A stretch of DNA of 64,000 bases from Desulfosudaceae bacterium. GTDB lineage: Bacteria; Desulfobacterota; Desulfobacteria; Desulfobacterales; Desulfosudaceae. Both the position numbers and the translations under genes were made by a program. The notes below the pieces were generated by a model, which was not told where the DNA came from, did no database searches, and saw nothing but the letters and a program-made list of their open reading frames with translations. The stretch spans positions 1,920,001 through 1,984,000 of the forward strand of contig CAXXDV010000003.1 of assembly GCA_963674745.2 (NCBI GenBank). The letters run 5' to 3'. Shown in pieces: positions 9,465 through 25,034 of the stretch (position 1 is the stretch's first letter; each line of letters opens with the position of its first letter).

Positions 9465-9782
9465 ATGAAACGAAAAAAAACCAAACGAATCCTATGTATA
9501 TTGGTGTTGTTTGTTCTCACCGTCAACCTGTGCCCGGCAGTCCTGGCTGAACAGGTTCGAAGTCCGGTCCAGAAAACCCTGGACACCCCGACGCCGACAG
9601 ATACGTTTATCGACGCCCTCTTTTACAGACCCGTGGGGCTGGCGCTGATTCCCATCGGTGCGGCGGTGTTTATTATCTCCCTGCCCTTTTCGGCAACCGG
9701 GGGGAATGTGCCCACCGCTTTTAACAACCTGGTTACGGCTCCGGCCAAATACACCTTTTGCCGGCCGCTGGGGGAAATTTAA
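9465..9782 (+). CDS. Small exported/membrane conserved hypothetical protein
   Basis: RBS AAAGGA, signal peptide, D.LFYRPVGL...FIISLPFS..GG...LV..PA.YTF.RPLG. Confidence 0.75.
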   Translation: MKRKKTKRILCILVLFVLTVNLCPAVLAEQVRSPVQKTLDTPTPTDTFIDALFYRPVGLALIPIGAAVFIISLPFSATGGNVPTAFNNLVTAPAKYTFCRPLGEI

Positions 9783-9832
9783 CGCAGATGTTGCCAGGGT
9801 CCCGGGTTCAACCCCCTCTTTAAAAGTTCGGG

Positions 9833-10954
9833 TCAGCCTGCCTGCCGTTCAGCGACCGCTTTTACGATCACACCAAGGTTCACCCCTGACCGCTGTATAA
9901 CCCGGCGGCATCGGGCAAACAACAACCCTGAAGCATTGGCGTTTCTCCCGGCCGATTCCCGCCCCAGCACGATCATTGCCGGGAGCAAGGTTTCCTTTAA
10001 CAACATCAGCTTGTCATGTCGTGACGCAAGGCAATTCATCCACAATATATTGCCCCAGTCTCCGATCGAACGGCCCCGTGATCTGAAGCCCAGCAAAGCC
10101 TGTTCAATACCGGAAATACTCATCTCGGAATGACAAAGCCGTGAACCTCCCGGAGGCTGAAAACAGAACATCCTGCCGAGCAGAAAAAAAGCATAGGACA
10201 ATGGTTTCTCCTGTTGAAACAAAAGAGCCCTGTCGTCCAGGCTTTTCCAGAATCCCGCGTCCCTGCCCCTGACAATCAAAAAAAAATCGACCAGCCAGAC
10301 CAGTTTTGAAAATGAATGCTTGATCATATGATGGGCCATATAGATTAAATGGGTAAATTCGTCGGGCACCCGCACAAGAGAAAACTCTTCACCCCAGGGG
10401 AGGGATTGGTTAAATATCTGTCGCTGATGCACAGGAAACAAGGCCTGCCTGCTTTTAATGCGCGATGTATGCATCAAACTGGTGTGCACATCGATCCGGA
10501 CATCATCTTTGTGAAACATCTGGGGGAACCGATGATCTGTTTTATAGCCGTTTTGTTTTAAAACTTCTTTCAGGCCCGACAAATCTTCTTTGCGGACCAG
10601 GAGATCAATGTCCTCCATGGGTCGTAGACCCGGGTCTGCATAAACGGTATCAAGTAAAGCCGCGCCTTTGAGCAGCACCACAGATATGTTTTCTGAGGCA
10701 AGAAGAGACTCAAGGATTTTAAGGTGCTCCCTTCTGAGGGTGTTCATCGCAAGCGTGGAATAATAGGCCTGTTCCAGAAAATGAAAGACGTCAGCAGGAA
10801 TGCCGTCCTGATTCGCCATCAAGCGATAGGCCAACCCCTGGAGCTGTTGTTGCGATAAAAACCGGGTAAACCCGTCCCAGGACTCGGGTGGCCTTGCGGG
10901 TTGATGCAGTAAAAGAGACAGGAGATAGTTCTGAAAACGTAAATCAGACATCAT
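9833..10954 (-). CDS. Nucleotidyltransferase family protein (NTP_transf_5-like, RiPP-associated type)
   Basis: VVLLKG...Y..PGLRPMEDIDLLV, IDVH, H..KH.F..LVWLVD; 4-bp overlap with the upstream peptidase. Confidence 0.85.
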   Translation of the reverse strand: MMSDLRFQNYLLSLLLHQPARPPESWDGFTRFLSQQQLQGLAYRLMANQDGIPADVFHFLEQAYYSTLAMNTLRREHLKILESLLASENISVVLLKGAALLDTVYADPGLRPMEDIDLLVRKEDLSGLKEVLKQNGYKTDHRFPQMFHKDDVRIDVHTSLMHTSRIKSRQALFPVHQRQIFNQSLPWGEEFSLVRVPDEFTHLIYMAHHMIKHSFSKLVWLVDFFLIVRGRDAGFWKSLDDRALLFQQEKPLSYAFFLLGRMFCFQPPGGSRLCHSEMSISGIEQALLGFRSRGRSIGDWGNILWMNCLASRHDKLMLLKETLLPAMIVLGRESAGRNANASGLLFARCRRVIQRSGVNLGVIVKAVAERQAG

Positions 10955-11475
10955 CTTACCCGTAATCTTTTCAAGACAGCCAGATATTTGACGATCAACG
11001 ATTTGAAGCGATAGTATTGTGCCCGGAAACGGTTCAAGATAATCGACCTGAGGCTAAGCATGTCGATCGAAATTAACCCTTTATGTCCCGGGCGTTCGAC
11101 AGAAACAACTCTGCCAAGACATTGTGCGGCGTCCAGGGGTAAATCCATCATATCCAGGGCATCACCTTTTGTATGCAGGATATTGTTATCACCGCCGGTG
11201 CCGTTGTTTTGAATTCTCAAAAGCCGGTGCAGCGCCATGGTTCCATTATCACGTGTACAAAGAACAACGTCCCCGGTTTTAAGCATTGCCGGGGGCACTT
11301 TCCGGATGGTGGCGATATCCCCGTCTTTAAGAGCGGGTGTCATACTGTCTCCGGTAACACGGACACGCAGATCTTTTCCGCTGGCCAGCAACGCTGATGC
11401 GAGTTCGCTCGACAGCGGATGGGTCTCGCGCGGATTGCCGGTTTCACAGGCATGATATTCATGTATTGAATTCAT
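10951..11475 (-). CDS. S24/S26 family peptidase (signal-peptidase-like, no TM anchor)
   Basis: VTGDSMTPALKDGD (catalytic Ser), LHRL, TKGDA..D; start placed at ATG 11475. Confidence 0.82.
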   Translation of the reverse strand: MNSIHEYHACETGNPRETHPLSSELASALLASGKDLRVRVTGDSMTPALKDGDIATIRKVPPAMLKTGDVVLCTRDNGTMALHRLLRIQNNGTGGDNNILHTKGDALDMMDLPLDAAQCLGRVVSVERPGHKGLISIDMLSLRSIILNRFRAQYYRFKSLIVKYLAVLKRLRVR

Positions 11476-12370
11476 TGGCGTTCTCTTGAAAAAAATCCGA
11501 GATCGAAGCATCGGCTCGAAACGTCAACTCATAAGCGGGAATCCGGCTTATCAAGTGGTCACAAAAGGCCATCATGGCGGCTGTTTTTTCTTTATCATAC
11601 CAGGGGATGGATAATACCGGCAACAATCTGCCAATCGTGTCCGAAGCGGAAAGTTCGGCCATCCTGTTCTCCGAGCCCTTGGACAAAAAAGCCATTTGCT
11701 TGAGTTCAACGCCCAGATTGACCGCGTGCCCCCCTTCCCCGGGCCACGGCGTCCCGTGCATTTGAAAGGTATGACCGGTTCTGCGGATGACGATGCGGTC
11801 ATCGCTTAACACCGCTCCAGAATTCAGGCCTGACAGATATCCGGCCAGGGTTGTCTTGCCGGCACCTGATTTTCCCGGGAAAACCCATCCCGAATTGTTT
11901 TGCGCCCATCCTGCCGCATGAACGATGACACCTTCATGATGGGCCAGAAAGTTCATCAGCATGATCTGATCCAGCGGATAGGTGACAGGATTAAGCGCCA
12001 GTGACCGCGTCTGTGTATTAATAATGTCACTGCTGCAGAACACAATGACCCGTCCGGCCTTTAAACAAAGCTGCGCCGTCCAGACCGGTTTTGCGAAAGG
12101 CGGGTATTGATCCGTAACATATAATTCGTCTTGACGAGCATAAACAGACCACGAATCCTGGCTGTCAAAAATTCGCTTGCAGCCCGTTAATTCCGGAGCA
12201 GGGTCTGCGGTCAAAATCACTTCGAGGTGTTCCTGATGGGAGCAGACGCGGTCATTATCGTCTAAGACGAACTGCCGGGAAATGTTTTGCGCCCATGCTT
12301 CTGCCGGCAACTTTAAATGACCGGTATCAACCTTCAGGGCCAGGCCTGCTATTGAAAGGATAAGTTTCAA
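11459..12370 (-). CDS. HPr kinase-like P-loop protein
   Basis: VHAAG, FPGKSGAGKTT, LSDDR, GTPWPG motifs of HprK-related kinases. Confidence 0.8.
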   Translation of the reverse strand: MKLILSIAGLALKVDTGHLKLPAEAWAQNISRQFVLDDNDRVCSHQEHLEVILTADPAPELTGCKRIFDSQDSWSVYARQDELYVTDQYPPFAKPVWTAQLCLKAGRVIVFCSSDIINTQTRSLALNPVTYPLDQIMLMNFLAHHEGVIVHAAGWAQNNSGWVFPGKSGAGKTTLAGYLSGLNSGAVLSDDRIVIRRTGHTFQMHGTPWPGEGGHAVNLGVELKQMAFLSKGSENRMAELSASDTIGRLLPVLSIPWYDKEKTAAMMAFCDHLISRIPAYELTFRADASISDFFQENANEFNT

Positions 12371-12384
12371 AGGTTTACTGGCAC

Positions 12385-12576
12385 TTATGATCCGAGGCTG
12401 AAGCAGGCGGAAGGCGCCACGCAGCTGAAGGGCGGTATGGCTGGCTGGCCTTTGCCCCCGGAGCTACTGACGTTTGTTTTGCACCCCACGGCCAGCACCT
12501 CATCGGCGACCAGCTCTATTATCTTGACGTCCGGTTTCTCATAGGGGCGCTTTTTCGGTTCGCTCTTTTCGGACAT
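12385..12576 (-). CDS. Putative RiPP precursor peptide, 63 aa
   Basis: RBS-like GAGGG; leader KRPYEKPDVKIIEL (YxxP RRE-binding type); core with 3 Cys, many Ser and a C-terminal Ser; sits between the rSAM and the kinase. Confidence 0.8.
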   Translation of the reverse strand: MSEKSEPKKRPYEKPDVKIIELVADEVLAVGCKTNVSSSGGKGQPAIPPFSCVAPSACFSLGS

Positions 12577-13678
12577 GTTCGCCCTCGACTGTCATTTGAT
12601 TAACATTTAATTTTTTTCCCATGCAACGGCCGATGCTGCAGAGATATTCTGAAATCTGTGTTTCAACACCCGTGTCCAGCCGGAAAAAAGCGGGACAGTA
12701 ACCGCAATAAGCACGATTTTCACAGGTTTTACATTCAAACTCAAGGGGAATCTTCTTTTTCCTGATGGCCGGAATCCGGTTTTGCCAACCGTCCATAAAA
12801 GATCCCTTCAAAAGATCATACCAGATATCGCTGACCATCAGGCAGGGTTTCAACCGCCCACCCGGGTCTATATGAAAATTAGTAGTGCCCGCACCGCAGT
12901 CATACAGCACATCGGAAAACGGCACCTGCGCCATCCGTTCCGCAAGCGCCCTCCATTCACCTACCATTCTTGAATCAGTCAGATTTTTTTCCGCCACCTC
13001 ATCCGGCGAAACCCGGTATGCAGCTGGAACGCGACTGCCGTCCAGGCAGGGAAATATCATACCGTCAAAACGGAACTTGATGCTGAAATTTTCAGCTACC
13101 TCTCGGATCCCATCAAATTCATGCCGGTTGATTGACATTAAAACAGTCTTCATCCGTGTCTGGACACCGGCATCAACCAATAATCGAATGCCATTCAGCG
13201 CTTTTTCCATCATGCCTGAACGGCGGGTTATCGCTTCATAGGTCGCTTCCGTTGACCCGTAGAAGGAGACCTCCACACAATTGGGCGGATATTCTTGAAA
13301 CAGCTCAATGATACGTTCGTTTATCAGGGAACCGTTGGTAAAAACGGTTACCACCAGTCCTTTTTTTTTCGCGTGGGCATAAAGGTCCGGGAAGTCTTTT
13401 CGCAGCAGGGGTTCCCCGCCGGTAAACAAAAGATATAAACAACCGGCTTCAGTAATTTCATCAATAATCGTAATCCATTGTTCCGTAGTCAGCTCTTGGG
13501 AAGTCTTATCAGGATTGTTTTTATCCGAACCCAGATAGCAATGAACGCAATCAAAGTTACATCGCCGGGTGATTTCAATATCGCCGCTGATCGGGACTCT
13601 GGCCCTCATGACCCGGCGCGCAAAAGCCATAAATGCGGATTCCGCTTCTATGTTCAATCGTTTCGGACAATCCATCAC
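12539..13678 (-). CDS. Radical SAM/SPASM domain protein (peptide maturase-like)
   Basis: CNFDCVHC (CxxxCxxC), TGGEPLL, FTNG; SPASM Cys set CGAG..IDP.G..KPC...CKTC....CGYCP...C. Confidence 0.93.
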   Translation of the reverse strand: MMDCPKRLNIEAESAFMAFARRVMRARVPISGDIEITRRCNFDCVHCYLGSDKNNPDKTSQELTTEQWITIIDEITEAGCLYLLFTGGEPLLRKDFPDLYAHAKKKGLVVTVFTNGSLINERIIELFQEYPPNCVEVSFYGSTEATYEAITRRSGMMEKALNGIRLLVDAGVQTRMKTVLMSINRHEFDGIREVAENFSIKFRFDGMIFPCLDGSRVPAAYRVSPDEVAEKNLTDSRMVGEWRALAERMAQVPFSDVLYDCGAGTTNFHIDPGGRLKPCLMVSDIWYDLLKGSFMDGWQNRIPAIRKKKIPLEFECKTCENRAYCGYCPAFFRLDTGVETQISEYLCSIGRCMGKKLNVNQMTVEGEHVRKERTEKAPL

Positions 13679-13992
13679 CGCACTTCACATATTAAATCCA
13701 GGTCAATCAACCGGTCGATGAGCTCACAGACATCGTTTCTGGCTACGGACCCGTTAACGGTAAAATTCTCTTCGACCCCATGACAGATTTGGTTTACCCG
13801 GTTTTCCCCGGATAATTGCTCCCACACAAATTCGGCAACCGGATTAAGCATGAATATCCGCTGCATATCAGCCACTTTTCCCCTGATGGGCACCAGGATT
13901 GCCTGACCGGCAATATTGCGGGAAACGATATCGGACTTTTTCTGATAAACACGATCCAGGATTGTTTCCGGGGCAGAACTGTTCATGGGCAT
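13675..13992 (-). CDS. PqqD family protein / RiPP recognition element
   Basis: IVSRNIAGQAILVP...FMLNPVAEFVWEQL...A.NDV.ELI..L....LI; RBS AGAAGGA upstream of ATG 13992 or 13986. The track's longer start overlaps the giant gene. Confidence 0.88.
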   Translation of the reverse strand: MPMNSSAPETILDRVYQKKSDIVSRNIAGQAILVPIRGKVADMQRIFMLNPVAEFVWEQLSGENRVNQICHGVEENFTVNGSVARNDVCELIDRLIDLDLICEVR

Positions 13993-14002
13993 CAATCCTT
14001 CT

Positions 14003-17000
14003 TTACCGGATCTGCAGGGCCGGGTCCCCCAGGAGGCTGTATATATCCTGCATGTAAGGATATTCCAGATTGCCCAGGGCCTGGTAACGTTCAAGGGCGC
14101 GGCTCACCGCCTGGCCGATAGTACCCGCCTTCTCATCAAATAGCACCCAGAACAATTCCTTGTTCATTCTGACAGCCTCACTGTTTATTGACAACCCGGT
14201 CGGTGACCAGGCCGCGATCATCCCCCCGCCGGATCTCAAGACCAGTTCTTCGCTGAGGGTATCCATCCAGGGATACGAAAAATCTCCCGCCAGGCAGGTC
14301 AAGGCAACGTATATCGGAAACTGACCGTTCGTCAACAGTCCCTGATGAGTGGTATTAAAAAAGTTGGACATGACGTCATAGCCGCCATGACCGATATAAT
14401 TGACCAGCCATTCACCACTGTCGACTGCGGCCACAAAGTCGTTGCGCATCTCACCGGCCGTTCGCCCCGGATAATAAAGCGTATCCACCGTAAAGCCGTT
14501 TACCAGGGCCGACACATCGTTACTGTCGGCGGGGAAATTGTTGGATATGGTGCTGTCCGGCTTATCGGCCACCATCAACACGTTGTCACGGGCGCCCGGA
14601 ACACCGGCCTCATAAGCGATAATCTTGGACACATAATCCGACATTTCGTTGATGGTTTTGACCGGAATACGACCCAGGACCACATTTGAAAGCCGGTCTT
14701 CGTCCACATCCCCGTAAATAACATCCGAGGCGTAAATACCGTAAGGCGTAAAGGTCATGACAACCGGCATCAGGTTCCGGACGCTGACGGAAAAGGTCTC
14801 GAGATTATTCTTATAGTCAAACGTACCGTCCCCGACCAGTAACACATACTGCGGAGACATGGTCCATTGGGTAAGCGCGAAATCGATAAAATCCCGGATC
14901 GCGTAAGGATCGTAAACCCCGAATGAGAACTCGTCAAGAACATCCGACAACCGGACCACCATGGGCGTCATACCCCGGCCTGACCGGTAATCAGACAGCA
15001 ACTGGGCGCCGGCGGTCAGCTCATCGGCCGCAATGATCAGATAATCGGCACGATTGGACGGATCTTTCAGGTTGGACGGTTCATCGGCCAGCAGTTCCGG
15101 TTCTTTGACGGCCGAGGGCAATAAGGCCAGATACGGCGTATCGGTGTTTTCCGGGGCCACCGTAATCCGGTTGTTGGTCGTGTCCAGGGCCGCGTTCTGA
15201 ACCCGCCTGGGTGTTTTGGTATCCGACAGATCGAACAAAGAGATATCCGGCCCGGCAAATCCCGTCACGGTAATCACGTCGTTCCCACCGGCAGTAAAAT
15301 GGAGCATATCACCAGCAGCCACATAAGACTTCTGGTAAGTCAGATCAAAGGAATCCACACCAAAGGCGTCATCGGTTGTCAGGCCGACGACCTTGACGGT
15401 ATTGGCACCCTCAACCAGGTACTGCTGATTGAACGAGAAAGTCTTTGACACCGGCTCAAAACCGCTCCAGTTCACTTCACCCAGGTTCAGCTCACTGCCC
15501 GTGCCCTGGTTCAAAATAACATCAGCCCGGTGGAGGTTGTCGCTGAAGCCATGGAAATGAACCGTCAATTCCGCCGTGAACGTATCACCGGGCGCTACGG
15601 CCGGAACATCCAGTGGGAAGGGATCAAAGCCATAAGCCGGCCCGAACTGGGGATTGCCAAGGGTAAAAATGTCCCAGAACCAGAAATCCGCTACGTCAAT
15701 GGGCACATCCGTCTTGAAAAATGTTTCTTTTTCGAAATGAACCGTGGCGGAAAAGGACTTATCTTCGCCGGTTAAGGCCGGAACATTGTCGGCCGATGTT
15801 GCCGTAAAGCCGGCCAGGGCATTCCGGATATAAGCCAGTTCAGCCATGTCCACTTTGCCGTTACCGTTGACATCGGCATCCGAAGCCGCGTAATCCGGTC
15901 GCAGATCACCGGCCGGCCGGCCGGTCATTACGTCCAGCCCGATGGCTAGATCGGCGGCGTCGATCAGGCCGTCATTGTTCAGGTCTCCCATGCCGTTGTC
16001 CGGCATCAGTTTCAGCCAGTAAACATTATGGTCGGTATAAATCGAAGAGAACGCCTCACCGTAAAAATAAATCGCCGAATAATCCGCTTCCGGATAATAA
16101 GCCACCGGTAAACCCCGGTTGGACAAACGGACTTTTCCTGCCGCAAGGGTGTCGATCACGTCAACTTCATTCACGTTCAGGGCCAGGGCCAGCTTGTCCA
16201 CGGCAACCCGGTACAGGCCGGAGGCTTCTACCCGGATCTTCACATCCCGGACGCCGGTCAACGGGCCGGGGCCCACGGAACGTTCCAGCCCGCGGTCAAA
16301 CGATTGGGTCAAGGCGGTGTTGACCGCCATTTTCGACGGCCTTACAACCGCCTCAAAGGATTTTAAACTCCCGTCCGTTTCGGTGGTCGACGAAACCAGC
16401 CGGCGATCCGTCCTTGAGAACCCCTTCCGGAAAAGGTCAGCTTCATGACGGGTATCCATGGCACCATCCACCATATCGGCCGTCACCGTGTAAGGGCCGT
16501 AACGACGCGTCTGTCCCGAGGCTTCCAGCTCAATAAGGTGATAGGTATAGGTTTCACCCGGTTTCGCCGTTGCATCGAGGCACCGGTAAACACCGCCATG
16601 CGGGAAAACCAGCGCCGGTATGGGACGATTCGTCACCCGCATCATACTTCCTTCATCACGACGCGCTACGGTAAACCCGAGGGTGCCCACCTGGGACACG
16701 GTCTCCCATTCCAGGATGACATGGCCGTTCTGAACAAATGCTTTAAAGTAAGATATTACAGCCAGTGTCGGCTTGATTTTAAAAAACCCGAAATCGATGT
16801 CATCGACATCTTCATCGGATGTGAGCGACTCATCTTCCTCACCATCAAAAGGTTCGGTGGTCCCTTCGGTTTTTTCATAAACGATTTCGTATCCATTCAG
16901 AACGCTGTTGATATCGGTAACCCGGACGGTATAATCAACCCCCGGCGCGGGCGTGGCCAACCCGGCAAATGCGTAATCTCCGGATGCATCTGTGGTCGCC

Positions 17001-20000
17001 GTCGCAATCACCACACCGTTCCTGATCAGATCTACGGTTACATTGGCCAGGCGGGGTTCTGTGCCGTCAATGATGCCGTCAACATCATCGTCTTCCCAGA
17101 GGGTGCCGGACAGGCTGCCCGGATTCAGGGTATCGTAACCGAAATCCGCTTCAAAATTGCTGACACCACCGGAAATCTGTACCCGCCGCTGGTGACCGGC
17201 AGCCGATCCATCATTATCCGTCGAGGTCAGATAAAAATCACTCAAGGCGACCTGGGTGTCGTCGATACTGACCCAGTACCAGCCGTCTGAAAGCCCGGAA
17301 AACAGATATTTGCCATTGGCATCCGTGACCAGTATTCCCAGTGAAGCACCGTCATCACCGCCCGGCTCGAAGTTACCGTCATTGTCGACATCGCGATACA
17401 GGGTAACCGTCACGTTTCTGATGCCCGGTTCATCGCCGTCCTGAACACCGTTACCAACCGTTCCGCCTCCCGCGCCATTGTCGTTAAATACCGTATCGCC
17501 AAGGCTGCGGGACAAATTATAACCAAAATGCGGAACGGAGGTGTAATCCAGGTCAACGGTCAACGTGCCGGGCATCTGGAACGACCCGGACAGGGCCGAC
17601 GGGGTGGTGCCGTAATAGCTGTTTAAAACACCCGCCTGATCCGTCACCTCCCAGGTGTAACGGACACCGGCCGGAACACCGGAAAACGTAAAATCGCCAT
17701 TGCTGTCCGTGGTTGTGGTGGCAATGAGATTAAGGCTGGCATCCAGCAGGTCCACGGTCACGCCGGCAAGGCCCCCTTCGGTTCCATCCTGAATACCATT
17801 ATCACCCGTACCTGTCGGCAAGCCGTTGTCCAGCCATACACGGTCTGAAATATCGTATGTCGTACCCGGCGTATTCTGGACGAAACCAAAATCGGCATTA
17901 AGATAGCTGTCGCCGGCATCCACATCCTGATAACTGTATATGCCGGTAATCGGAATGGTGAGATCGTATGCCGGAAGATCCGACTGGTCCACCCATACAA
18001 TATAATCCTCCGTACCGGATGCCGCGACACCTGCAAACAGATAGCGGCCGGCGGCATCCGTATCGGTTTCAATGAAGGGCTCACCTCCGTCGATGATGCC
18101 GTTACCGTTGGTGTCGGTGTAAAGCCTGACCGTAACGCCGGGCAGTCCCGGCTCTCCCGGATCACGGATACCGTCTCTGTCGGCATCACTCCAGACCAGG
18201 TCGCCGAAAAAGGCCGTGCCCGGGTCAGGCTGATACCCCAGATCGGCGTCAAGATATTCGGTCAGGGTTAAGTCGGGTATGGTGTAGGCGATATCCACAT
18301 CATCGATGTTAAAATACTCATCGGCGGCGTCCAAGCCGCTGGTGGCACGAAACCTGACGGTGGTCGTGTCAGAGGCCAGCCCCAGCGCGACCAGGTCATA
18401 TGACCGGCTGCCGCTTCCGGCCGTTCCGTCAAAAGTTTCCAGTACGGTAAAATTCGAACCGTCCGGACTGGCTTCCACCACGATCGTATCGCCGGACTCC
18501 AGATTGGCGGCTTCATAGCCGAAGCTCAGCGTGGCGCTGTTGGCGTGTTCAATATCCGCGACACGTTTGATCAGGGAACCGGCAGCGCTGTTGCTGCCGC
18601 TATACGCGATATTGACGTTATCAAGACGTACCCGGTCATTGTCATTATTCCAGGTGGAGCCGGAACGGAACCGCAGGGTAATGGTGGGGTCGGCCGGATC
18701 CCAGGCAATCGGAAAGGAATAACTGCCGTCATCGTTGTTATCCAGAACCACCAGGGGGGTATAAGAAGCACCGCCGTCAGCACTGTATTCGGCGATCACG
18801 GTTTCCCCGGCTTCAATTCCGGCGTCATCATAATCAAAGCTGACGGTCACCGAGTCCGCTCCGGTCACGGTCTGGCTTCTCAAAATGGCATCATCGACAT
18901 CGCACCGGCGTAGTTGCAGCCGATTATTATTATTCTGGAGTTGAATGGTCCCGGTGCTGTAATCCGGCGTTCCGGGGTCGTTTTCTTCGGTCCAGGGGCC
19001 GTTGTTCCAGCCGGTTCCGCCATTGTAGGTGTTGTCCGTGGTAAAGGGATCATTGGCATTTCCGCTGACAATACCCGGCCGGAACTGCAGGTCTCCGCCC
19101 GTAATCCAGATGGTCCCGGTGCCGGCGCCGGCACCGGAGGGGTCTGTTTCCACCCAGTCCCCGTTCCAGTTGGCGGTACCGTCGTCATTGTCGTAAGCGG
19201 CACTTGAAAATTCGTCCCGGTAATTTCCGGAACTGGCGGCAATGGAAAGATCAAAGGAATCGGTCCGGTTGTCGGTCCGCCCGTCGGTGGTCTGGACCAG
19301 GCCGGGCGGAAGGCCATCGGTTATCTCGACATAATAGCCTGTGTCTATTTCCACATCGGAAAACTGGTAGTAGCCGATACTGTTGGTCAGCATGGTCTGC
19401 AAAGGTGTACCGTACTGATCTTTCAAGGTCACTTTGACATTGGGGATGCCGGATTCGCCCAGATCCAGAATACCGTTTCCGTTGGCGTCAAGCCATACCC
19501 GGTCCCCCACTACGGCGCTGCTCTGGTCCGGATTGACCACCGGATCGGTGACCGAAGCGCTGACGGGGGTGAATATTTCACTGCTGGTGACCGAAGCCGT
19601 ATTGGTGATCTCCGTAATGCCCGTTGCCAGTGGATCATCTATCGTCGCCTGGAACGTAAGGATAAGGGACTGGCCGGCAGCCAGATCATAATTGTCGCCG
19701 GACAGGACAAAGCCGGGCGGATCATGCCCCGCAACGGTGGTTATCCCGCCACTGTAGGCAATATTTACATTATCGATATCACAGTATTCACCGTCGGCAT
19801 CAATCCCGCCGGAAACACGAAACTGCACCGTGGTGGCGCTTCCGATATACGAACTGATATCATAAGAAAGATCCGGTTGAGCGGTATTGTCTCCGTCAAA
19901 CGTCTGCAGGGGGGTAAACGTGGCCCCGCCGTCTGAATTGATCTCGGCCACGATCGTATCGCCGGACTCCAGATTCGCGGCGCTGTAATCAAAACTCAGG

Positions 20001-22912
20001 GTGGCGCTGGTGGCACCGGTAAGGTCGACGCTGCGGTTGATAAGGGAACCGGAAGCGCTGGCCGTTGCGGAAAAAGTGATGTCCACATTATCAAGGTATA
20101 CGTAGTCATTGTCCCAGCTCCAGGTAGAACCTGAATTGGAACGGAACCGAAGGGTAATCGTGTTATTAACCGGATTCCAGACGATCGGAAAGGAATAACT
20201 TCCGGTCATGCCATCATCCAGCGTGACCAGTGACGTGTATCCACCTCCGGTACTGTATTCGGCAATTACCGTTTCACCGGCTTCAACACCAGCATCCGTG
20301 TAATCAAAACTGACGGTAACAAGCGTCGCACCGGCCACATTCGCCGTCCTCAGAATGGCATCATCGGGTTCGCACTGCCTTAATTCAAGCCGATTATTTC
20401 CATTACTGAGCCGAATGGTTCCCGTACTGTAATCCGGCGTGCCGGCGTCGTTTTCTTCTGTCCAGGCCCCGGTCCAGCTTCCGGTTCCGCCATTATAAGT
20501 ATCATCTGTGGTGAAAGGATCATTCGCACTTCCGCCGGCAGTGGTTCCCGGCCGGAATTGCAGCGCCCCCCCCGTAACCCAGACGGCGCCGCTGCCGGGA
20601 CCGGCACCGAATGAGTCAGTTTCTGTCCAATCACCGGACCAGTTGGCCGTGCCGTCGTCATTGTCGTAAGCGGCGCTTGAAAACTCGTCCCGTACGTTGG
20701 CAGACACCGGCCCCTCTACCTCGGCACTTGCCGCCACATAGGTGACGCCCGAAGGCATGGCATCATAAACCGAGATATTATTTAACGTGGTGGTGCCTGA
20801 ATTGGTTACCGTAACCGTGTACGTGACGGTGTCTCCCGGATAAGCAGCGGTGGCAATGTCCGAGGTTTTGGTGACATCCATATCTTCGTTGCCGTATGTG
20901 ACAAAGGCAAAATCCGACGTGGTAAATGTCTGGGGCACTCCCTCCACTGTCCGGGTGCCGATGGCGGTCACATCATTCTTGGAAAGATCGCCCACGGCAA
21001 AATTCTGGGTCGTCCGCCCGTCAAAAGAGATATAGAGTTTCTGGTTTGGGGCCATGGTGCCCAGAATAGCGCTTCCCCATGTCAGGGTTCGATTGTCAGG
21101 CCCGGAAGGTGTCGGGTCAGTTATGCCCGGGCTGCTGCCGTCCGGCAGGGTGATCTGAGTGGTGCCGCCCACATATTCCCAATCGGGCGGGAGTAAATCG
21201 ATCACCTCGATATCGTCGACCGGGTATTTTCCGGTTTCCACCTCCAGGGTAAATGTTGTCTGCTGGGGAGAAGCGGTGGGGATTATACCGGGATCCACGC
21301 TTTTGTTCACCCTCAGGACCAGATCGATAAAATCACTGCCGGGAATTGTCGTATATCCGACGTCAATGGCCGGCGTGGCAGCCGGGGCCCCGGGATTCTG
21401 ACCGTAGGCGGCCACATAGGGGCCGGTGGCGTAAATATTGGCTTCCGTCATGTCACCGTCATTGGGATCAAATACATACTGGGAATCCAGGCGATCAAGA
21501 TCGTAAAAAACATCAAAAGGATTTGCGTCCGACGGATTATAATCGATAAATATCCGGGTATTATCCTGAGCGGGAGAGAGATATACACCGGAATTGTCGG
21601 CGTCCCCACCTGTCCCCACCGGGTATGATCCCGGCGCCCATCCCATGAAATGTTCATTCTCCAGCAAAAACGCCGGCACCAGGCTGTATCCCCAGTCATG
21701 GGTCCGGCCGGCCCCGAAATCAGCCGCGTCTCCGTCAGAGGTATCAATAGTAGAGACGCCCCAGAACACATCACTGGCTGACAGGTAAACACCAGATGTC
21801 AGGGGGACATACCCCCCCGTGCCCTGAAAATAGGAACGGGTGGTTTTGGGATTGATGTTAAACCATCCGGACCCGCCGCCATTGGTCTGGTAGTCAATCC
21901 GTAAGACCGTATCATTGGGATTGTAGAGATAGATATCCGTATCCCCGTTATTGGCTGAAGTACCGCTGTTCACCGGCGCGTAATACTCATTGTCCCAGAA
22001 CCCCCGGGGAAAGGCGGACAATCCCCTGACTTCATAATTAGACCCCTGGTCCCCCACGACATATTGTACCTGGATAGTCGCGGAAGCCTGGATTCTTGTG
22101 CCGGCAATCAGCAGATTATCTGCCGTACTGCCATTGACCGCAGCGCCGTTAATGGCCTGGTCGCCCATGGTGACCCTGTCTAACAAAAGCACATCCCCCT
22201 GGTTAAGCGTATGGGTTGTGCCGTCAAGCGTGCCGTCGCGGTCCCAGTCAAGCTGGTCATAGACGCCGTCCTTGTCCAGGTCCACCTGGATTACTGTTCC
22301 ATCAGCGGTTGCCTGGATCAGGTTATAGACCCGGTCAAAATCCCAGTAGTTCTTGGCCGCGTCTCTGGCCAGATCTTCGCCGAAAGGCATGATATAAGTG
22401 GTGAGCTGCGGTCGAACCGGATAGACCTCCCAGGCAACGGCCAGGAGGGTCCCGGCCGCTTCGGTCCAGGAAGCACGGGCCACGGTGACGGCCCCTCCGG
22501 CCACGTATATGTGATCCCTGCCGTCATAATACGTGGCGGTACCGCGCGGGTTGTTGGGGACATCGGTCCCCTCGAAAATCTCACTGTCCCCGCGGGGAAC
22601 AATCAAGCGGATTTCATCAGCGGTGGCGGCAGGATCGGCCTTATCAAAATCGTATCCGTCTTCCCAGTGATCGTAATACACGGTGGTATTTGGCGACCAG
22701 GCTGTCACCGAAATAATGGAATGCAGAGGGCCTGAAACATCATCATATGCAATGTCATCCAATACAAATGACATGAGATTCTCATCCCCGGGAATAAAAT
22801 ATTCGGAATATCCCGCTGAGGCGGCCCCGAATGCCTGACCGGCTGTAAAAACAATACAGAAGAAAACCATCAGAAAACGGATTAACGCTTGCGGCTTGTT
22901 ATGACAATTCAT
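14003..22912 (-). CDS. Giant secreted multidomain protein: DUF11 and SdrD-B-like repeats, duplicated beta-rich module, dockerin-like domain, C-terminal C25 (gingipain-family) cysteine peptidase
   Basis: Signal peptide; DUF11-like VTKT..PGDTVTYTVTVTN; five GDxVWxD..G..D..E.G...V.V.L-type repeats; GDLNNDGLID/ADVNGNGKVD pair; C25 motifs ADYLII, YVLLVGD, GRIPV, NYIGHG, TCLAGDF, LLGDPAL. Confidence 0.88.
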   Translation of the reverse strand: MNCHNKPQALIRFLMVFFCIVFTAGQAFGAASAGYSEYFIPGDENLMSFVLDDIAYDDVSGPLHSIISVTAWSPNTTVYYDHWEDGYDFDKADPAATADEIRLIVPRGDSEIFEGTDVPNNPRGTATYYDGRDHIYVAGGAVTVARASWTEAAGTLLAVAWEVYPVRPQLTTYIMPFGEDLARDAAKNYWDFDRVYNLIQATADGTVIQVDLDKDGVYDQLDWDRDGTLDGTTHTLNQGDVLLLDRVTMGDQAINGAAVNGSTADNLLIAGTRIQASATIQVQYVVGDQGSNYEVRGLSAFPRGFWDNEYYAPVNSGTSANNGDTDIYLYNPNDTVLRIDYQTNGGGSGWFNINPKTTRSYFQGTGGYVPLTSGVYLSASDVFWGVSTIDTSDGDAADFGAGRTHDWGYSLVPAFLLENEHFMGWAPGSYPVGTGGDADNSGVYLSPAQDNTRIFIDYNPSDANPFDVFYDLDRLDSQYVFDPNDGDMTEANIYATGPYVAAYGQNPGAPAATPAIDVGYTTIPGSDFIDLVLRVNKSVDPGIIPTASPQQTTFTLEVETGKYPVDDIEVIDLLPPDWEYVGGTTQITLPDGSSPGITDPTPSGPDNRTLTWGSAILGTMAPNQKLYISFDGRTTQNFAVGDLSKNDVTAIGTRTVEGVPQTFTTSDFAFVTYGNEDMDVTKTSDIATAAYPGDTVTYTVTVTNSGTTTLNNISVYDAMPSGVTYVAASAEVEGPVSANVRDEFSSAAYDNDDGTANWSGDWTETDSFGAGPGSGAVWVTGGALQFRPGTTAGGSANDPFTTDDTYNGGTGSWTGAWTEENDAGTPDYSTGTIRLSNGNNRLELRQCEPDDAILRTANVAGATLVTVSFDYTDAGVEAGETVIAEYSTGGGYTSLVTLDDGMTGSYSFPIVWNPVNNTITLRFRSNSGSTWSWDNDYVYLDNVDITFSATASASGSLINRSVDLTGATSATLSFDYSAANLESGDTIVAEINSDGGATFTPLQTFDGDNTAQPDLSYDISSYIGSATTVQFRVSGGIDADGEYCDIDNVNIAYSGGITTVAGHDPPGFVLSGDNYDLAAGQSLILTFQATIDDPLATGITEITNTASVTSSEIFTPVSASVTDPVVNPDQSSAVVGDRVWLDANGNGILDLGESGIPNVKVTLKDQYGTPLQTMLTNSIGYYQFSDVEIDTGYYVEITDGLPPGLVQTTDGRTDNRTDSFDLSIAASSGNYRDEFSSAAYDNDDGTANWNGDWVETDPSGAGAGTGTIWITGGDLQFRPGIVSGNANDPFTTDNTYNGGTGWNNGPWTEENDPGTPDYSTGTIQLQNNNNRLQLRRCDVDDAILRSQTVTGADSVTVSFDYDDAGIEAGETVIAEYSADGGASYTPLVVLDNNDDGSYSFPIAWDPADPTITLRFRSGSTWNNDNDRVRLDNVNIAYSGSNSAAGSLIKRVADIEHANSATLSFGYEAANLESGDTIVVEASPDGSNFTVLETFDGTAGSGSRSYDLVALGLASDTTTVRFRATSGLDAADEYFNIDDVDIAYTIPDLTLTEYLDADLGYQPDPGTAFFGDLVWSDADRDGIRDPGEPGLPGVTVRLYTDTNGNGIIDGGEPFIETDTDAAGRYLFAGVAASGTEDYIVWVDQSDLPAYDLTIPITGIYSYQDVDAGDSYLNADFGFVQNTPGTTYDISDRVWLDNGLPTGTGDNGIQDGTEGGLAGVTVDLLDASLNLIATTTTDSNGDFTFSGVPAGVRYTWEVTDQAGVLNSYYGTTPSALSGSFQMPGTLTVDLDYTSVPHFGYNLSRSLGDTVFNDNGAGGGTVGNGVQDGDEPGIRNVTVTLYRDVDNDGNFEPGGDDGASLGILVTDANGKYLFSGLSDGWYWVSIDDTQVALSDFYLTSTDNDGSAAGHQRRVQISGGVSNFEADFGYDTLNPGSLSGTLWEDDDVDGIIDGTEPRLANVTVDLIRNGVVIATATTDASGDYAFAGLATPAPGVDYTVRVTDINSVLNGYEIVYEKTEGTTEPFDGEEDESLTSDEDVDDIDFGFFKIKPTLAVISYFKAFVQNGHVILEWETVSQVGTLGFTVARRDEGSMMRVTNRPIPALVFPHGGVYRCLDATAKPGETYTYHLIELEASGQTRRYGPYTVTADMVDGAMDTRHEADLFRKGFSRTDRRLVSSTTETDGSLKSFEAVVRPSKMAVNTALTQSFDRGLERSVGPGPLTGVRDVKIRVEASGLYRVAVDKLALALNVNEVDVIDTLAAGKVRLSNRGLPVAYYPEADYSAIYFYGEAFSSIYTDHNVYWLKLMPDNGMGDLNNDGLIDAADLAIGLDVMTGRPAGDLRPDYAASDADVNGNGKVDMAELAYIRNALAGFTATSADNVPALTGEDKSFSATVHFEKETFFKTDVPIDVADFWFWDIFTLGNPQFGPAYGFDPFPLDVPAVAPGDTFTAELTVHFHGFSDNLHRADVILNQGTGSELNLGEVNWSGFEPVSKTFSFNQQYLVEGANTVKVVGLTTDDAFGVDSFDLTYQKSYVAAGDMLHFTAGGNDVITVTGFAGPDISLFDLSDTKTPRRVQNAALDTTNNRITVAPENTDTPYLALLPSAVKEPELLADEPSNLKDPSNRADYLIIAADELTAGAQLLSDYRSGRGMTPMVVRLSDVLDEFSFGVYDPYAIRDFIDFALTQWTMSPQYVLLVGDGTFDYKNNLETFSVSVRNLMPVVMTFTPYGIYASDVIYGDVDEDRLSNVVLGRIPVKTINEMSDYVSKIIAYEAGVPGARDNVLMVADKPDSTISNNFPADSNDVSALVNGFTVDTLYYPGRTAGEMRNDFVAAVDSGEWLVNYIGHGGYDVMSNFFNTTHQGLLTNGQFPIYVALTCLAGDFSYPWMDTLSEELVLRSGGGMIAAWSPTGLSINSEAVRMNKELFWVLFDEKAGTIGQAVSRALERYQALGNLEYPYMQDIYSLLGDPALQIR
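18300..20695 (-). repeat. Intragenic duplication of a module of roughly 300 aa within the giant protein
   Basis: RDEFSSAAYDNDDGTANW...ANDPFTTD.TYNGGTG...AANLESGDTIV occurs twice; DNA near-identical at an offset of about 1470 bp (e.g. 18478 vs 19948). Boundaries approximate. Confidence 0.85.
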
Positions 22913-23079: not shown

Positions 23080-24846
23080 TTAAGGAACACATGTGCCTAT
23101 AAAACACCCGGAAGAACCGCCACCGCCACCACTGCTGCTGTTGCTGCTACTTCCGGTTTCAGGCGCGACAATCCCACCCGGATCGATAATCACCCCGTTG
23201 GCCACACCGTCCAGGTCACCCGGGCCGCCATCCGTCAAAGTCAGGGTCAGAGAGCGCATACCTTCAGCAAACACGGCATATCCGCTGAAATCGTAAAAGC
23301 TCTGATCAACCGTGGTCTTCCACCATTGCGATCCGGACGTCATTTTTTCGGAAAAACCGATGGTGATGGTTACGGTAGCACCGGAAACGGCGGTCTTCAA
23401 CCGGAACGACAGCAGGCCATGGGTGAAATTGACCGGCCAGAAACCGGCATTTTTAAAATCTTCGGCCGGCGCCCATCTGAAACGCTCAATATTTTCCACG
23501 CCTTCATCTGCAGCCAGACTGAAGCGCAGACCGTTGGCACGGGACTGCAGGACCAAGCCCTCATCACCGGCATCGATTAAATTCGTCTGAATATTCCCGT
23601 TCACGACATCCTGATCATCCGGGACACCGTTTCCGTCATCATCCCTTACCGGGTCGGCACCAGTGGTAAACTCGCCCGCAGTTTCCCACGGTCCGGTGTC
23701 ATAACGAATCCGCCAGTAGTAGGTCGTATAAGCATCCAGTATGAGATCCGGAAGTTGAATTTCCGTCACATCATAGGGGCCGGTATATTCAAACAGCAGA
23801 TTGGTGAAGGTGCTGTCGGTACTGATCTGCCAGACGATGACCGCGTCCGGTCCGACCGTGTCGGGGCCGGGGAACGGCTCTATCTCCATCACCGGATTCA
23901 GGGAAACATCAATGGCACCGTTGGCCGGGCCGATCAGGACATCATGGCAGTCGGGAATACCGTCTTCATCACTGTCAGCATCGGCTACCCCGCAGCCACA
24001 GGCGCCCGGTTCGGTTTTTAACGGGTCATCGGGACATTCGTCCTCATTGTCCGGCACACCGTCATTATCCGAATCCACAACCGGATTAACATCGTTATCG
24101 TCGCCACCCGGCTCCATACCCGGATCGTCGTCAGGCGGTGTCACGCCGCCACTGTTACCCAGGACATTAAAAACAAACAAAGGCTGCTCATCAAACCCGT
24201 CCTTGACAACAGCGGCTTCCATTCCATCCGTATCGTCACGACCGGCCCCACTGTCCGGTCCAAACAGGTACAAAAGGGGCACGTTTTCCGTCAGATCTTT
24301 ATCTGCCGGGTTGAAAACCCCGTTATTGTTATTGTCAGTCCCCCAACCGGCCGGGCCGTTACAAAGTCGGCTCTGAAAAAGGCGCATGCTGTGGATGCCG
24401 GCCGGGGCGGCGCTTTTAACCCGAAAAACAACGGTAAACAACGTTAACGGTTCCGAACCCGCATCTAAAGCCGAGGGTTGTTTGAAAATGCCGGTTAAAA
24501 AAACCGTTCCCGGATTCTCTGTGTTGCTTGACCAGAAAGAGCCCATACCGGGTTCGCCACTCATATCATCCCGGTGAATTTCAAAAACCGATGTGGTCAC
24601 CGCCTCGGATTCCAATGAAAGCACATTTCCCGGGTACGTCAGAGAAAAGGCAGCACCTTCGAACGAGGAGATATCCGACGCAACGATATTGACGGTCAAC
24701 AGCGTAGCCCCTCGAAGATTTCTAGGCGTACCATCCAGACCAATCGTTACGGCAAATGAATTTGCTGCCGGAAAAAACAGGCAAACAAAAGCCAGAAAAA
24801 CAGACAGGAGGATATTCTGTCCTATTTTATTGTTCTTGAGTCTCAT
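23080..24846 (-). CDS. Secreted surface protein: cohesin-like domain, TSP3-like Asp-rich repeats, FN3-like domain, choice-of-anchor-U-like domain, Gly/Ser-GCFI tail
   Basis: Signal peptide; TVNIVASDISSFEGAAFSLTYP..VL (cohesin-like); DSDNDGVPDNEDECPDDP; GLLSFRL...LTLTDGGPGDLDGVANGVIIDPGG; ends SSSGGGGGSSGCFIGTCVP. Confidence 0.8.
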   Translation of the reverse strand: MRLKNNKIGQNILLSVFLAFVCLFFPAANSFAVTIGLDGTPRNLRGATLLTVNIVASDISSFEGAAFSLTYPGNVLSLESEAVTTSVFEIHRDDMSGEPGMGSFWSSNTENPGTVFLTGIFKQPSALDAGSEPLTLFTVVFRVKSAAPAGIHSMRLFQSRLCNGPAGWGTDNNNNGVFNPADKDLTENVPLLYLFGPDSGAGRDDTDGMEAAVVKDGFDEQPLFVFNVLGNSGGVTPPDDDPGMEPGGDDNDVNPVVDSDNDGVPDNEDECPDDPLKTEPGACGCGVADADSDEDGIPDCHDVLIGPANGAIDVSLNPVMEIEPFPGPDTVGPDAVIVWQISTDSTFTNLLFEYTGPYDVTEIQLPDLILDAYTTYYWRIRYDTGPWETAGEFTTGADPVRDDDGNGVPDDQDVVNGNIQTNLIDAGDEGLVLQSRANGLRFSLAADEGVENIERFRWAPAEDFKNAGFWPVNFTHGLLSFRLKTAVSGATVTITIGFSEKMTSGSQWWKTTVDQSFYDFSGYAVFAEGMRSLTLTLTDGGPGDLDGVANGVIIDPGGIVAPETGSSSNSSSGGGGGSSGCFIGTCVP

Positions 24847-25034
24847 ATCCTGATTCACCAGCCATTTTGTCAACCTTGCAGAGGGAAAAGGTCGCCTCTA
24901 ACTGCCTAAAGCTTTAACTAACCGATATAATACATATTAAAATCAGACCGTGGTATTAATAGCAGAAAATACATGAATAAGTGAAAAATCGATCACGGCT
25001 GAAGATATGTATATTCAACACTAAAAGTTAAAAA

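Follow-up and report, generated by a model that had tools for sequence, protein, structure and literature searches.

A conserved three-cysteine precursor peptide with radical SAM and HprK-like kinase neighbours in a Desulfosudaceae bacterium: a probable relative of the linear polyphosphorylated peptides

The window analysed here (the whole 64,000-nucleotide stretch of a Desulfosudaceae contig) carries on its minus strand a cassette encoding a PqqD-type RRE, a radical SAM (rSAM) enzyme, a small precursor peptide, an HprK-like kinase, a signal-peptidase-like protein and a PF14907 transferase, next to the gene of a giant secreted protein. The features of the locus are as follows.

14003..22912, minus strand: giant secreted protein, 2969 aa (PF01364 at 1.8e-70; NF033707 at 2.5e-56, below cut-off)
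13675..13992, minus strand: PqqD-family RRE, 105 aa from the ATG at 13992 (PF05402 at 1.2e-12)
12539..13678, minus strand: radical SAM/SPASM enzyme, 379 aa (PF04055 at 2.5e-26)
12385..12576, minus strand: precursor peptide gene, 63 aa plus stop, ATG start, kept across phyla with synonymous variation at invariant residues
12511..12546, minus strand: leader residues 11-22 (PYEKPDVKIIEL), YxxPx[LVI] RRE-binding motif with Y12 and P15 invariant
12478..12501, minus strand: junction E26-V-L-A-V-G-C32-K33, with the candidate leader-cleavage bonds and the Cys-Lys pair (E26, C32 and K33 invariant)
12388..12423, minus strand: C-terminal C52-x5-C58-x3-G62-S63, with two invariant Cys and the terminal Ser
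11459..12370, minus strand: HprK-like P-loop kinase, 303 aa (TIGR04355 at 1e-7, below cut-off)
10951..11511, minus strand: soluble archaeal/SipW-type signal-peptidase-like (S24/S26) peptidase, 186 aa (TIGR02228 at 1.8e-12, PF00717 at 5.6e-8)
9833..10954, minus strand: PF14907 nucleotidyltransferase, 373 aa (PF14907 at 2.4e-40)

A preliminary description of this DNA had proposed an easily missed precursor gene overlapping the end of the rSAM gene, and its account of the ORF is borne out in the details. The minus-strand translation of 12385-12576 is identical to the 63-aa sequence proposed, the RBS-like site is read as GAGGG at 12582-12586 (minus), 5 nt before the ATG, and the 38-bp overlap with the rSAM gene corresponds to positions 12539-12576, common to the precursor ORF and the rSAM ORF (12539..13678). 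The peptide contains C32, C52 and C58 and terminates in Ser63. Small ORFs are common around it (136 of at least 40 aa in 20 kb), so that its size alone is not significant and its reality rests on conservation. A promoter and terminator scan of 9500-14300 gave nothing above shuffled sequence. A lipoprotein signal, with a lipobox before C32, was considered and ruled out, the leader having acidic residues and no hydrophobic signal segment. Searches of Pfam and NCBIfam with the peptide returned 0 matches, and its profile gave no meaningful match to PDB chains. The epithet "easily missed" holds only in part: many relatives had already been predicted by gene callers, but none is named and no Pfam or NCBIfam family covers them.

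Conservation of the peptide was followed at three depths. A word-indexed search of 5.8 billion proteins recovered 17 unnamed homologues (E 2.6e-29 to 6e-4), while a pattern scan covering a single genome for each species yielded 59 matches, 48 of them confirmed, in 46 loci. These loci belong to Desulfobacterota families, Acidobacteriota (Thermoanaerobaculia, Vicinamibacteria), Nitrospirota, Lentisphaerae, a PVC-group MAG and an Acidimicrobiaceae MAG. Since the species-representative scan imposes A[DE]EVLAVGC, that motif was left out of the conservation evidence; outside it, all 48 complete ORFs of the scan have exactly three Cys and a terminal Ser, with a Gly-Ser end in 46. An alignment of 60 precursor sequences has Y12, P15, E26, C32, K33, C52, C58 and S63 invariant, and its profile, run by index-free HMMER against 1.84 billion representatives, matched 1549 proteins at E<=1e-3 (204 at <=1e-10). 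Detailed counts refer to 146 short proteins among the 148 best-scoring of these 1549 hits, two long repetitive proteins having been dropped; P0009 and P0012, already among the 17 homologues, are not in the 148-hit set. Within these 146 proteins, YxxP occurs in 143, the Tyr-to-Cys distance being 20 residues in 142 of the 143, the first Cys belongs to a Cys-Lys pair in 145, exactly three Cys are present in 145, and the last residue is Ser in 142 and Thr in four. The features singled out in the preliminary description for comparison among homologues (YxxP, Cys-Lys, three Cys and the terminal Ser/Thr) are thus all conserved, and the YxxP motif, the three conserved Cys and the terminal Ser support its assignment of the peptide as a RiPP-type precursor.

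At the invariant V, A, G, L, C and K positions of the precursor relatives every synonymous codon is in use. Judged by such comparison, the 63-codon ORF is a real gene, conserved at the protein level across phyla. The notion of an untranslated chance frame in the rSAM-kinase spacer is effectively refuted by the cross-phylum protein conservation together with the synonymous variation, and its probability is negligible. Two loci carry two precursor copies each, namely L006 (1135-1302 and 7986-8153) and L007 (8001-8162 and 8527-8670).

Neighbour conservation was assessed by tblastn of the window proteins against the 46 loci, of which 24 have at least 7 kb on both sides (full-flank loci). The rSAM enzyme was found in 43/46 loci, the RRE in 41/46 and the kinase in 42/46, and all three in 24/24 of the full-flank loci; a discrete PqqD-type RRE, a SPASM rSAM and an HprK-like kinase are the obligatory neighbours of the precursor. 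The remaining partners are less constant: the giant C25 protein was found in 38/46 loci (21/24 full-flank), the signal-peptidase-like peptidase in 30/46 (16/24) and the PF14907 transferase in 4/46 (2/24). Among five genomes probed whose locus is without the peptidase, a homologue (E 1e-31 to 4e-35) occurs in four, and the S24-like peptidase was not found in the fifth. In three loci (L022, L026, L034) the peptidase lies downstream of the giant gene, 0.3-1 kb past the locus end (assuming the same contig), giving the apparent order RRE-rSAM-peptide-kinase-giant-peptidase; in Acidobacteriota the giant gene stands between kinase and peptidase. Of 401 genomes sampled from the phylum, 10 are matched by the peptide profile, and the nine best kinase matches (E<=2e-47) all fall within these ten; in the tenth, the peptide sits on a 1.6-kb contig.

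A variant peptide clade has the junction EEAVLAACK and keeps the Gly-Ser end. Its loci contain the RRE, rSAM, kinase and peptidase genes, and the transferase in 5/5 loci, while the giant protein was not found within 20 kb in these five loci; an ABC-2 transporter pair adjoins the cassettes. In one of them (L078:7897-9102, minus) the signal-peptidase-like domain and a class I SAM methyltransferase domain lie in one open frame. Elsewhere, a 344-446-aa protein without a Pfam family adjoins the kinase gene in five Desulfobacterales-type loci (e.g., L008:8159-9316); its gene separates peptide and kinase in L008, L015 and L037, whereas L004 and L011 have it right behind the kinase. More distant clusters of an HprK-like kinase and an rSAM enzyme (L072-L074) hold candidate peptides, picked by simple patterns, with YxxP leaders, 5-6 Cys and Gly-rich repeats, ending in Lys or Asn; they may represent a further related peptide class.

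The rSAM enzyme has the features of a SPASM maturase, that is, a CX3CX2C motif (C40, C44, C47) and a seven-Cys region (C261, C279, C316, C319, C325, C328, C347), all of these residues being invariant or at least 90% conserved (C279 and C347 invariant). Its profile matched, as closest solved chains, SkfB (3.5e-29), PqqE (3.7e-20), 5v1q (1e-9), which we take to be SuiB, and 5wgg (2e-8), presumably CteB. SkfB forms a Cys thioether and PqqE a C-C link. In all 78 NCBIfam matches the enzyme stays below the curated cut-off (for example, 76 vs 400 bits for GeoRSP rSAM TIGR04303); the ScmD and ScmE matches are likewise under their cut-offs, at 29 vs 100 and 108 vs 400 bits. Since it falls below every NCBIfam cut-off, and since the nearest enzymes carry out thioether (SkfB), C-C (PqqE) and other chemistry, the reaction is not deducible from the sequence; we infer that a thioether may be formed through the precursor Cys.

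A non-thioether reaction is the most substantial alternative to this part of the reading, though a doubtful one. The enzyme might instead form a C-C or C-O cross-link, epimerise residues, convert Cys to formylglycine or act on K33 or the C-terminal Gly-Ser, with the Cys serving as a disulfide, a metal site or an auxiliary-cluster handle. The sub-threshold scores in all 78 NCBIfam matches, the rank of PqqE as second-best solved relative and the conservation of K33 and G62, as strong as that of the Cys, would agree with it; the occurrence of exactly three Cys in 145/146 of the best short hits, at conserved spacing near the C-terminus, and the thioether chemistry of SkfB, the nearest solved relative, point the other way.

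The RRE gene is preceded by GAAGGA upstream of the ATG at 13992 and starts after an 11-nt gap from the giant gene's stop. The best PDB matches of its profile are TbiB1 (1.4e-10), 9X90 chain B (1e-7), 9X8Z chain B (1.9e-7) and PqqD (5.6e-7). According to the data statement of PMC13381572, 9X90 is the PbaB1 leader complex and 9X8Z the LppB leader complex; by profile comparison, the window RRE resembles the lasso and linear polyphosphorylated peptide (LPP) RREs TbiB1, PbaB1 and LppB. The candidate binding motif has parallels in both systems, as YxxPxL lies at -17 to -12 of lasso leaders (PMC10368454) and YxxP is also described for LPP leaders (PMC13381572).

The peptidase scores just under the curated cut-off of TIGR02228 and has no N-terminal hydrophobic anchor. 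Across 29 sequences it conserves G-x-S56-M-x-P, H95-R96 and G116-D117...D123, at 90% or more for S56 and without exception for the remaining numbered residues, with S56, H95 and D117/D123 as candidate catalytic residues, and fits an archaeal/SipW-type Ser-His-Asp enzyme that would work in the cytoplasm. Its Ser and His are 39 residues apart, as are S29 and H68 in LppS, which is a proven RRE-dependent leader peptidase (PMC13381572); the idea of a signal-peptidase-like enzyme as a RiPP leader peptidase thereby has an experimental precedent.

With respect to the cleavage site, the preliminary description had guessed at a cut after VLA, which is not favoured by the comparison; at least three bonds, this one included, come into question. 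LPP precursors have the motif YxxPxVLxHQxIxFETxxS and are cleaved after T(-1) (PMC13381572). When the peptides are aligned on the leader Tyr, E26 (+14) matches LPP E(-2) and V27 (+15) matches LPP T(-1). Position 27 is V, I, T or A among the best short hits, including 'DETLAVGCK' and 'EETLAAGCK', and a distant kinase-linked candidate (L077) reads M-E-T-L-A-A-V-C. Cleavage after V27 is favoured by this alignment of E26/V27 with the LPP 'E-T|' and by the ET of distant relatives. The small -1/-3 rule fits G31|C32, the best short hits and the variant clade having G, A, S and once N at -1, a variable -2, and A, G, S, V, L or F at -3. The bond A29|V30 fits the main clade, but in the variant clade the residue at -1 would then be L or F. 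The predicted order is therefore E26-V27 as most likely, G31|C32 second and A29|V30 third.

The kinase scores below the curated cut-off of HprK_rel_B (TIGR04355; 31 vs 200 bits), but 33 sequences all keep H151, GxSGAGK (166-172) and D190-D191-R192; its profile matches HprK/P chains at 4e-4, and its structural model (pLDDT 93.8) has a fold closest to PEPCK and HprK/P. The same genome holds two further HprK-superfamily matches, neither of them with rSAM or PqqD neighbours. The DD motif of the window kinase is the counterpart of the residues mutated in PsmK, D158/D159 (PMC6993621, PMC8498205). The statements on lasso kinases in the preliminary description agree with these same two sources: PadeK and PsmK phosphorylate the precursor C-terminal Ser, and PsmN (PF14907-type) is needed for the hexose on the C-terminal phosphoserine. 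A C-terminal Ser is the target of PadeK, PsmK, ThcoK and SyanK (PMC6993621, PMC8498205, PMC10368454), whereas BsfK phosphorylates Ser3 of the core and is stimulated by the RRE (PMC10368454), and LppK also phosphorylates core Ser3 (PMC13381572). In the window family, the only invariant hydroxyl is that of the terminal Ser/Thr; the residue after CK is T in 19/49 sequences, and no internal Ser/Thr position is conserved. With PadeK and PsmK acting at this position but the related BsfK and LppK on Ser3, the terminal Ser is a predicted kinase site.

It is unlikely, judging from the same residues, that the kinase acts on an internal Ser/Thr near the junction or on another substrate, the terminal Gly-Ser being kept for rSAM recognition or a C-terminal modification. 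That arrangement would follow the Ser3 specificity of both BsfK and LppK, and the window peptide does offer T34 and S37-39 after CK. Against it stand the lack of any conserved internal Ser/Thr (T follows CK in only 19/49), the terminal Ser/Thr of 146/146 best short hits and, as weak evidence from regex-picked sequences, the S or T ends of the distant kinase-linked candidates L060, L075 and L077. The transferase part of the terminal-Ser proposal is weakened: the PF14907 gene, present in only 4/46 loci and 2/24 full-flank loci, is an accessory gene in the main clade, though it is present in 5/5 variant-clade loci.

The giant protein comprises a signal peptide, a conserved beta-sandwich N-region, DUF11/SdrD_B/dockerin repeats and, at its C-terminus, a PorU-like C25 domain, whose His/Cys dyad is invariant in 21 sequences. 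The N-region (residues ~28-680; 20873-22831, minus) has no Pfam family and shows 31-51% identity to Acidobacteriota and Desulfobacterota relatives. Its model (pLDDT 79.5) is a beta-sandwich array with only generic multi-Ig/adhesin/macroglobulin-like matches (TM 0.1-0.18), and the ESM Atlas gave weak DUF11/IgGFc_binding leads (0.83-0.84). The giant protein is absent from L003, L009 and L037. Its link to the peptide cassette is frequent, not obligatory, since the variant clade is without it and the N-region, found in 5/401 genomes, occurs in three of these five without the peptide.

These data bear on the suggestion that the peptide is a cofactor precursor or a cross-linked small subunit of the giant C25 protein or another partner, and not a free product; PQQ, mycofactocin (MftA) and QhpC offer analogies. 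The restriction of invariance to a handful of residues while the loop drifts in length and sequence, the tight coupling to the giant gene, which in Acidobacteriota lies between kinase and peptidase, and a cassette without an exporter would all suit such a role. The full cassette of the variant clade with no giant protein within 20 kb, and the giant N-domain in three genomes without the peptide, make it quite improbable. A predicted complex of the peptide with the 560-aa C25 domain, run without controls, scored 0.02 vs a mark of 0.32 and speaks neither for nor against such a role.

The peptide cassette forms the 3' end of a roughly 40-kb co-directional locus starting at ~50.3 kb. A ~27-kb polysaccharide biosynthesis/export locus (23080-50295, minus) runs co-directionally into the giant gene and the cassette. 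Its biosynthesis genes encode GT1/GT4/GT9 glycosyltransferases, a Glycos_transf_4 primer enzyme, DegT, PIG-L, WbqC and GDP-mannose dehydratase; further genes are HD_5, a pepcterm-ATPase-like AAA_22, a Wza-like gene with FG-GAP repeats, a Wzc-like gene and Wzy_C. At 23080-24873 (minus) lies a 597-aa choice-of-anchor U protein (1.2e-24) with a Gly/Ser-rich linker, whose tail has two Cys (…GCFIGTCVP) and is without a recognisable sorting signal. In two of the five variant-clade loci (L078, L079) the cassette stands beside Wza-like, Wzc-like, pepcterm-ATPase-like and HD_5 genes. Five other peptide-carrying genomes have pepcterm-ATPase-like genes, with no adjacency to the cassette, and hence no polysaccharide link, established for them. 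LPP clusters are likewise described as embedded in capsule loci (PMC13381572).

Whether these neighbours are meaningful or incidental separates a surface role from that of an ordinary secreted antimicrobial or signalling RiPP. The latter is rendered improbable by the giant-gene adjacency in several phyla (21/24 full-flank loci), by the polysaccharide-locus setting in two clades and, as reported, in LPP clusters, and by the window cassette, which has neither an immunity nor an exporter gene; its hypervariable core, its patchy occurrence (10/401 genomes of the phylum sample) and the ABC-2 transporter pair beside variant-clade cassettes are the observations that such a RiPP would explain. The product probably has a role at the cell surface or in the matrix rather than as a classical bacteriocin. 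The cassette closes a ~40-kb polysaccharide locus and is linked with a giant secreted C25 protein.

Taken together, the reading preferred here, to which we would assign a probability of roughly 0.55, is that the ORF encodes the precursor of a ribosomal peptide that is cross-linked by the rSAM enzyme, terminally phosphorylated, cleaved by the SpI-like peptidase and probably used at the surface or in the matrix. In this scheme the RRE would bind the YxxPx[LVI] leader motif and present the peptide to the enzymes. The rSAM enzyme would cross-link the core via the three invariant Cys, most likely by thioether bridges closing a variable Gly/Pro/Ser-rich loop, and the kinase would phosphorylate the invariant C-terminal Ser63, perhaps more than once. 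Where present, as in the window, the PF14907 transferase may decorate the Ser63 phosphate. The soluble Ser/His signal-peptidase-like enzyme would then remove the leader at the E-V-L-A-V-G-C-K junction, most likely after E26-V27, leaving a 32-36-residue, three-Cys, C-terminally phosphorylated peptide.

A far bolder extension, and a very improbable one, would make the matured peptide an adaptor rather than a free product, with an rSAM-stapled body, a C-terminal Ser, phosphorylated and in loci with the transferase also glycosylated, joined to the exopolysaccharide encoded upstream, and the other end cut or ligated by the PorU-like C25 domain of the giant adhesin. If true, it would amount to sortase-type protein-to-glycan anchoring outside the type IX secretion phyla.

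On the preferred reading, the peptide is the predicted substrate of a widespread, unnamed rSAM and kinase pathway related to the LPP and phospho-lasso systems. A substrate is thereby defined for an unnamed family of 1549 representative clusters from several phyla, mostly uncultured anaerobes, which is undescribed in Pfam, NCBIfam and the searched literature, and the enzyme set of the LPP and phospho-lasso systems is tied to radical-SAM chemistry. The invariant CK, the two further Cys and the terminal Ser are clear mutational targets. Furthermore, the repeated placement in polysaccharide loci and beside a giant PorU-like protease suggests a role for phosphopeptides in capsule or matrix biology, a role which Popov et al. 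leave explicitly open for LPP phosphopeptides (PMC13381572).

In the searched literature, nothing was found combining HPr kinase/HprK with radical SAM and a PqqD precursor or with ranthipeptides, nor radical SAM with peptidase C25, and no paper has the motif VLAVGCK. Sactipeptides and ranthipeptides (SkfB, AlbA, CteB-type) share with the window family a peptide-modifying SPASM rSAM enzyme, an RRE and a Cys-bearing core; unlike them, the window family has a stand-alone RRE and, in addition, a kinase and an SpI-like peptidase, and its rSAM enzyme lies below all curated cut-offs. The C25 domain of the giant protein resembles PorU, the type IX secretion sortase, by its NF033707 match at 2.5e-56 and its invariant His/Cys dyad, but scores under the curated cut-off (191 vs 420 bits) and is fused to a 2400-residue adhesin-like protein. 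To our knowledge, the phyla carrying the giant C25 protein are not known for T9SS.

The phospho-lasso systems (paeninodin PadeK, pseudomycoidin PsmK/PsmN, BsfK), as described in the sources cited above for these enzymes, have in common with the window family an HprK-like kinase, a PF14907 transferase, a B1-type RRE and a YxxPxL leader, and the C-terminal Ser phospho-site of PadeA and PsmA resembles the terminal Ser of the window precursor. Nevertheless, the lasso cyclase (Asn-synthetase-like) and the transglutaminase-like B2 protease are absent, all ORFs of 9833-22912 being assigned to other families. The window cassette has an rSAM enzyme and an SpI-like peptidase in their place, and its precursor family is without a conserved Asp/Glu for a macrolactam.

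The closest known system is that of the LPP (LppA/B/K/S/N/D) of Bacillota, in which Ser3 is polyphosphorylated (Popov et al., Nat Commun 2026, PMC13381572). Both have a discrete RRE, a YxxP leader, an HprK-like kinase, a SipW/archaeal-type leader peptidase, a PF14907-type transferase, a Glu 14 residues after the leader Tyr and a polysaccharide-locus setting. Of the traits taken here to mark LPP membership, the window cassette shows the RRE with [Y/W]xxP, the SpI-like Ser-His-Asp peptidase (compared with LppS by description) and the HprK-like kinase. With the LPP motif YxxPxVLxHQxIxFETxxS the window family shares only the Y, the P and the +14 Glu, and no Ser is conserved close to the [DE]-E-V-L-A-V-G-C-K junction. 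LPP clusters have no other primary modification enzyme, whereas the window family has the rSAM/SPASM enzyme in 24/24 full-flank loci. 'Radical SAM' has 0 occurrences in the main text of PMC13381572, and in its supplements the terms Radical_SAM and Peptidase_C25 are each found a single time, heading columns of a total domain matrix. LPP clusters have an MsbA-like exporter, while no exporter is found among the genes of the window cassette. The window family, in turn, has three invariant Cys with the CK pair, a terminal Ser/Thr instead of the FETxxS Ser3, and the giant C25 protein. LPP are restricted to Bacillota according to PMC13381572, whereas the window family occurs in Desulfobacterota, Acidobacteriota, Nitrospirota and Lentisphaerota. 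On these comparisons of sequence and gene content, the window family is best regarded as a relative of LPP that has an rSAM enzyme and occurs outside Bacillota.
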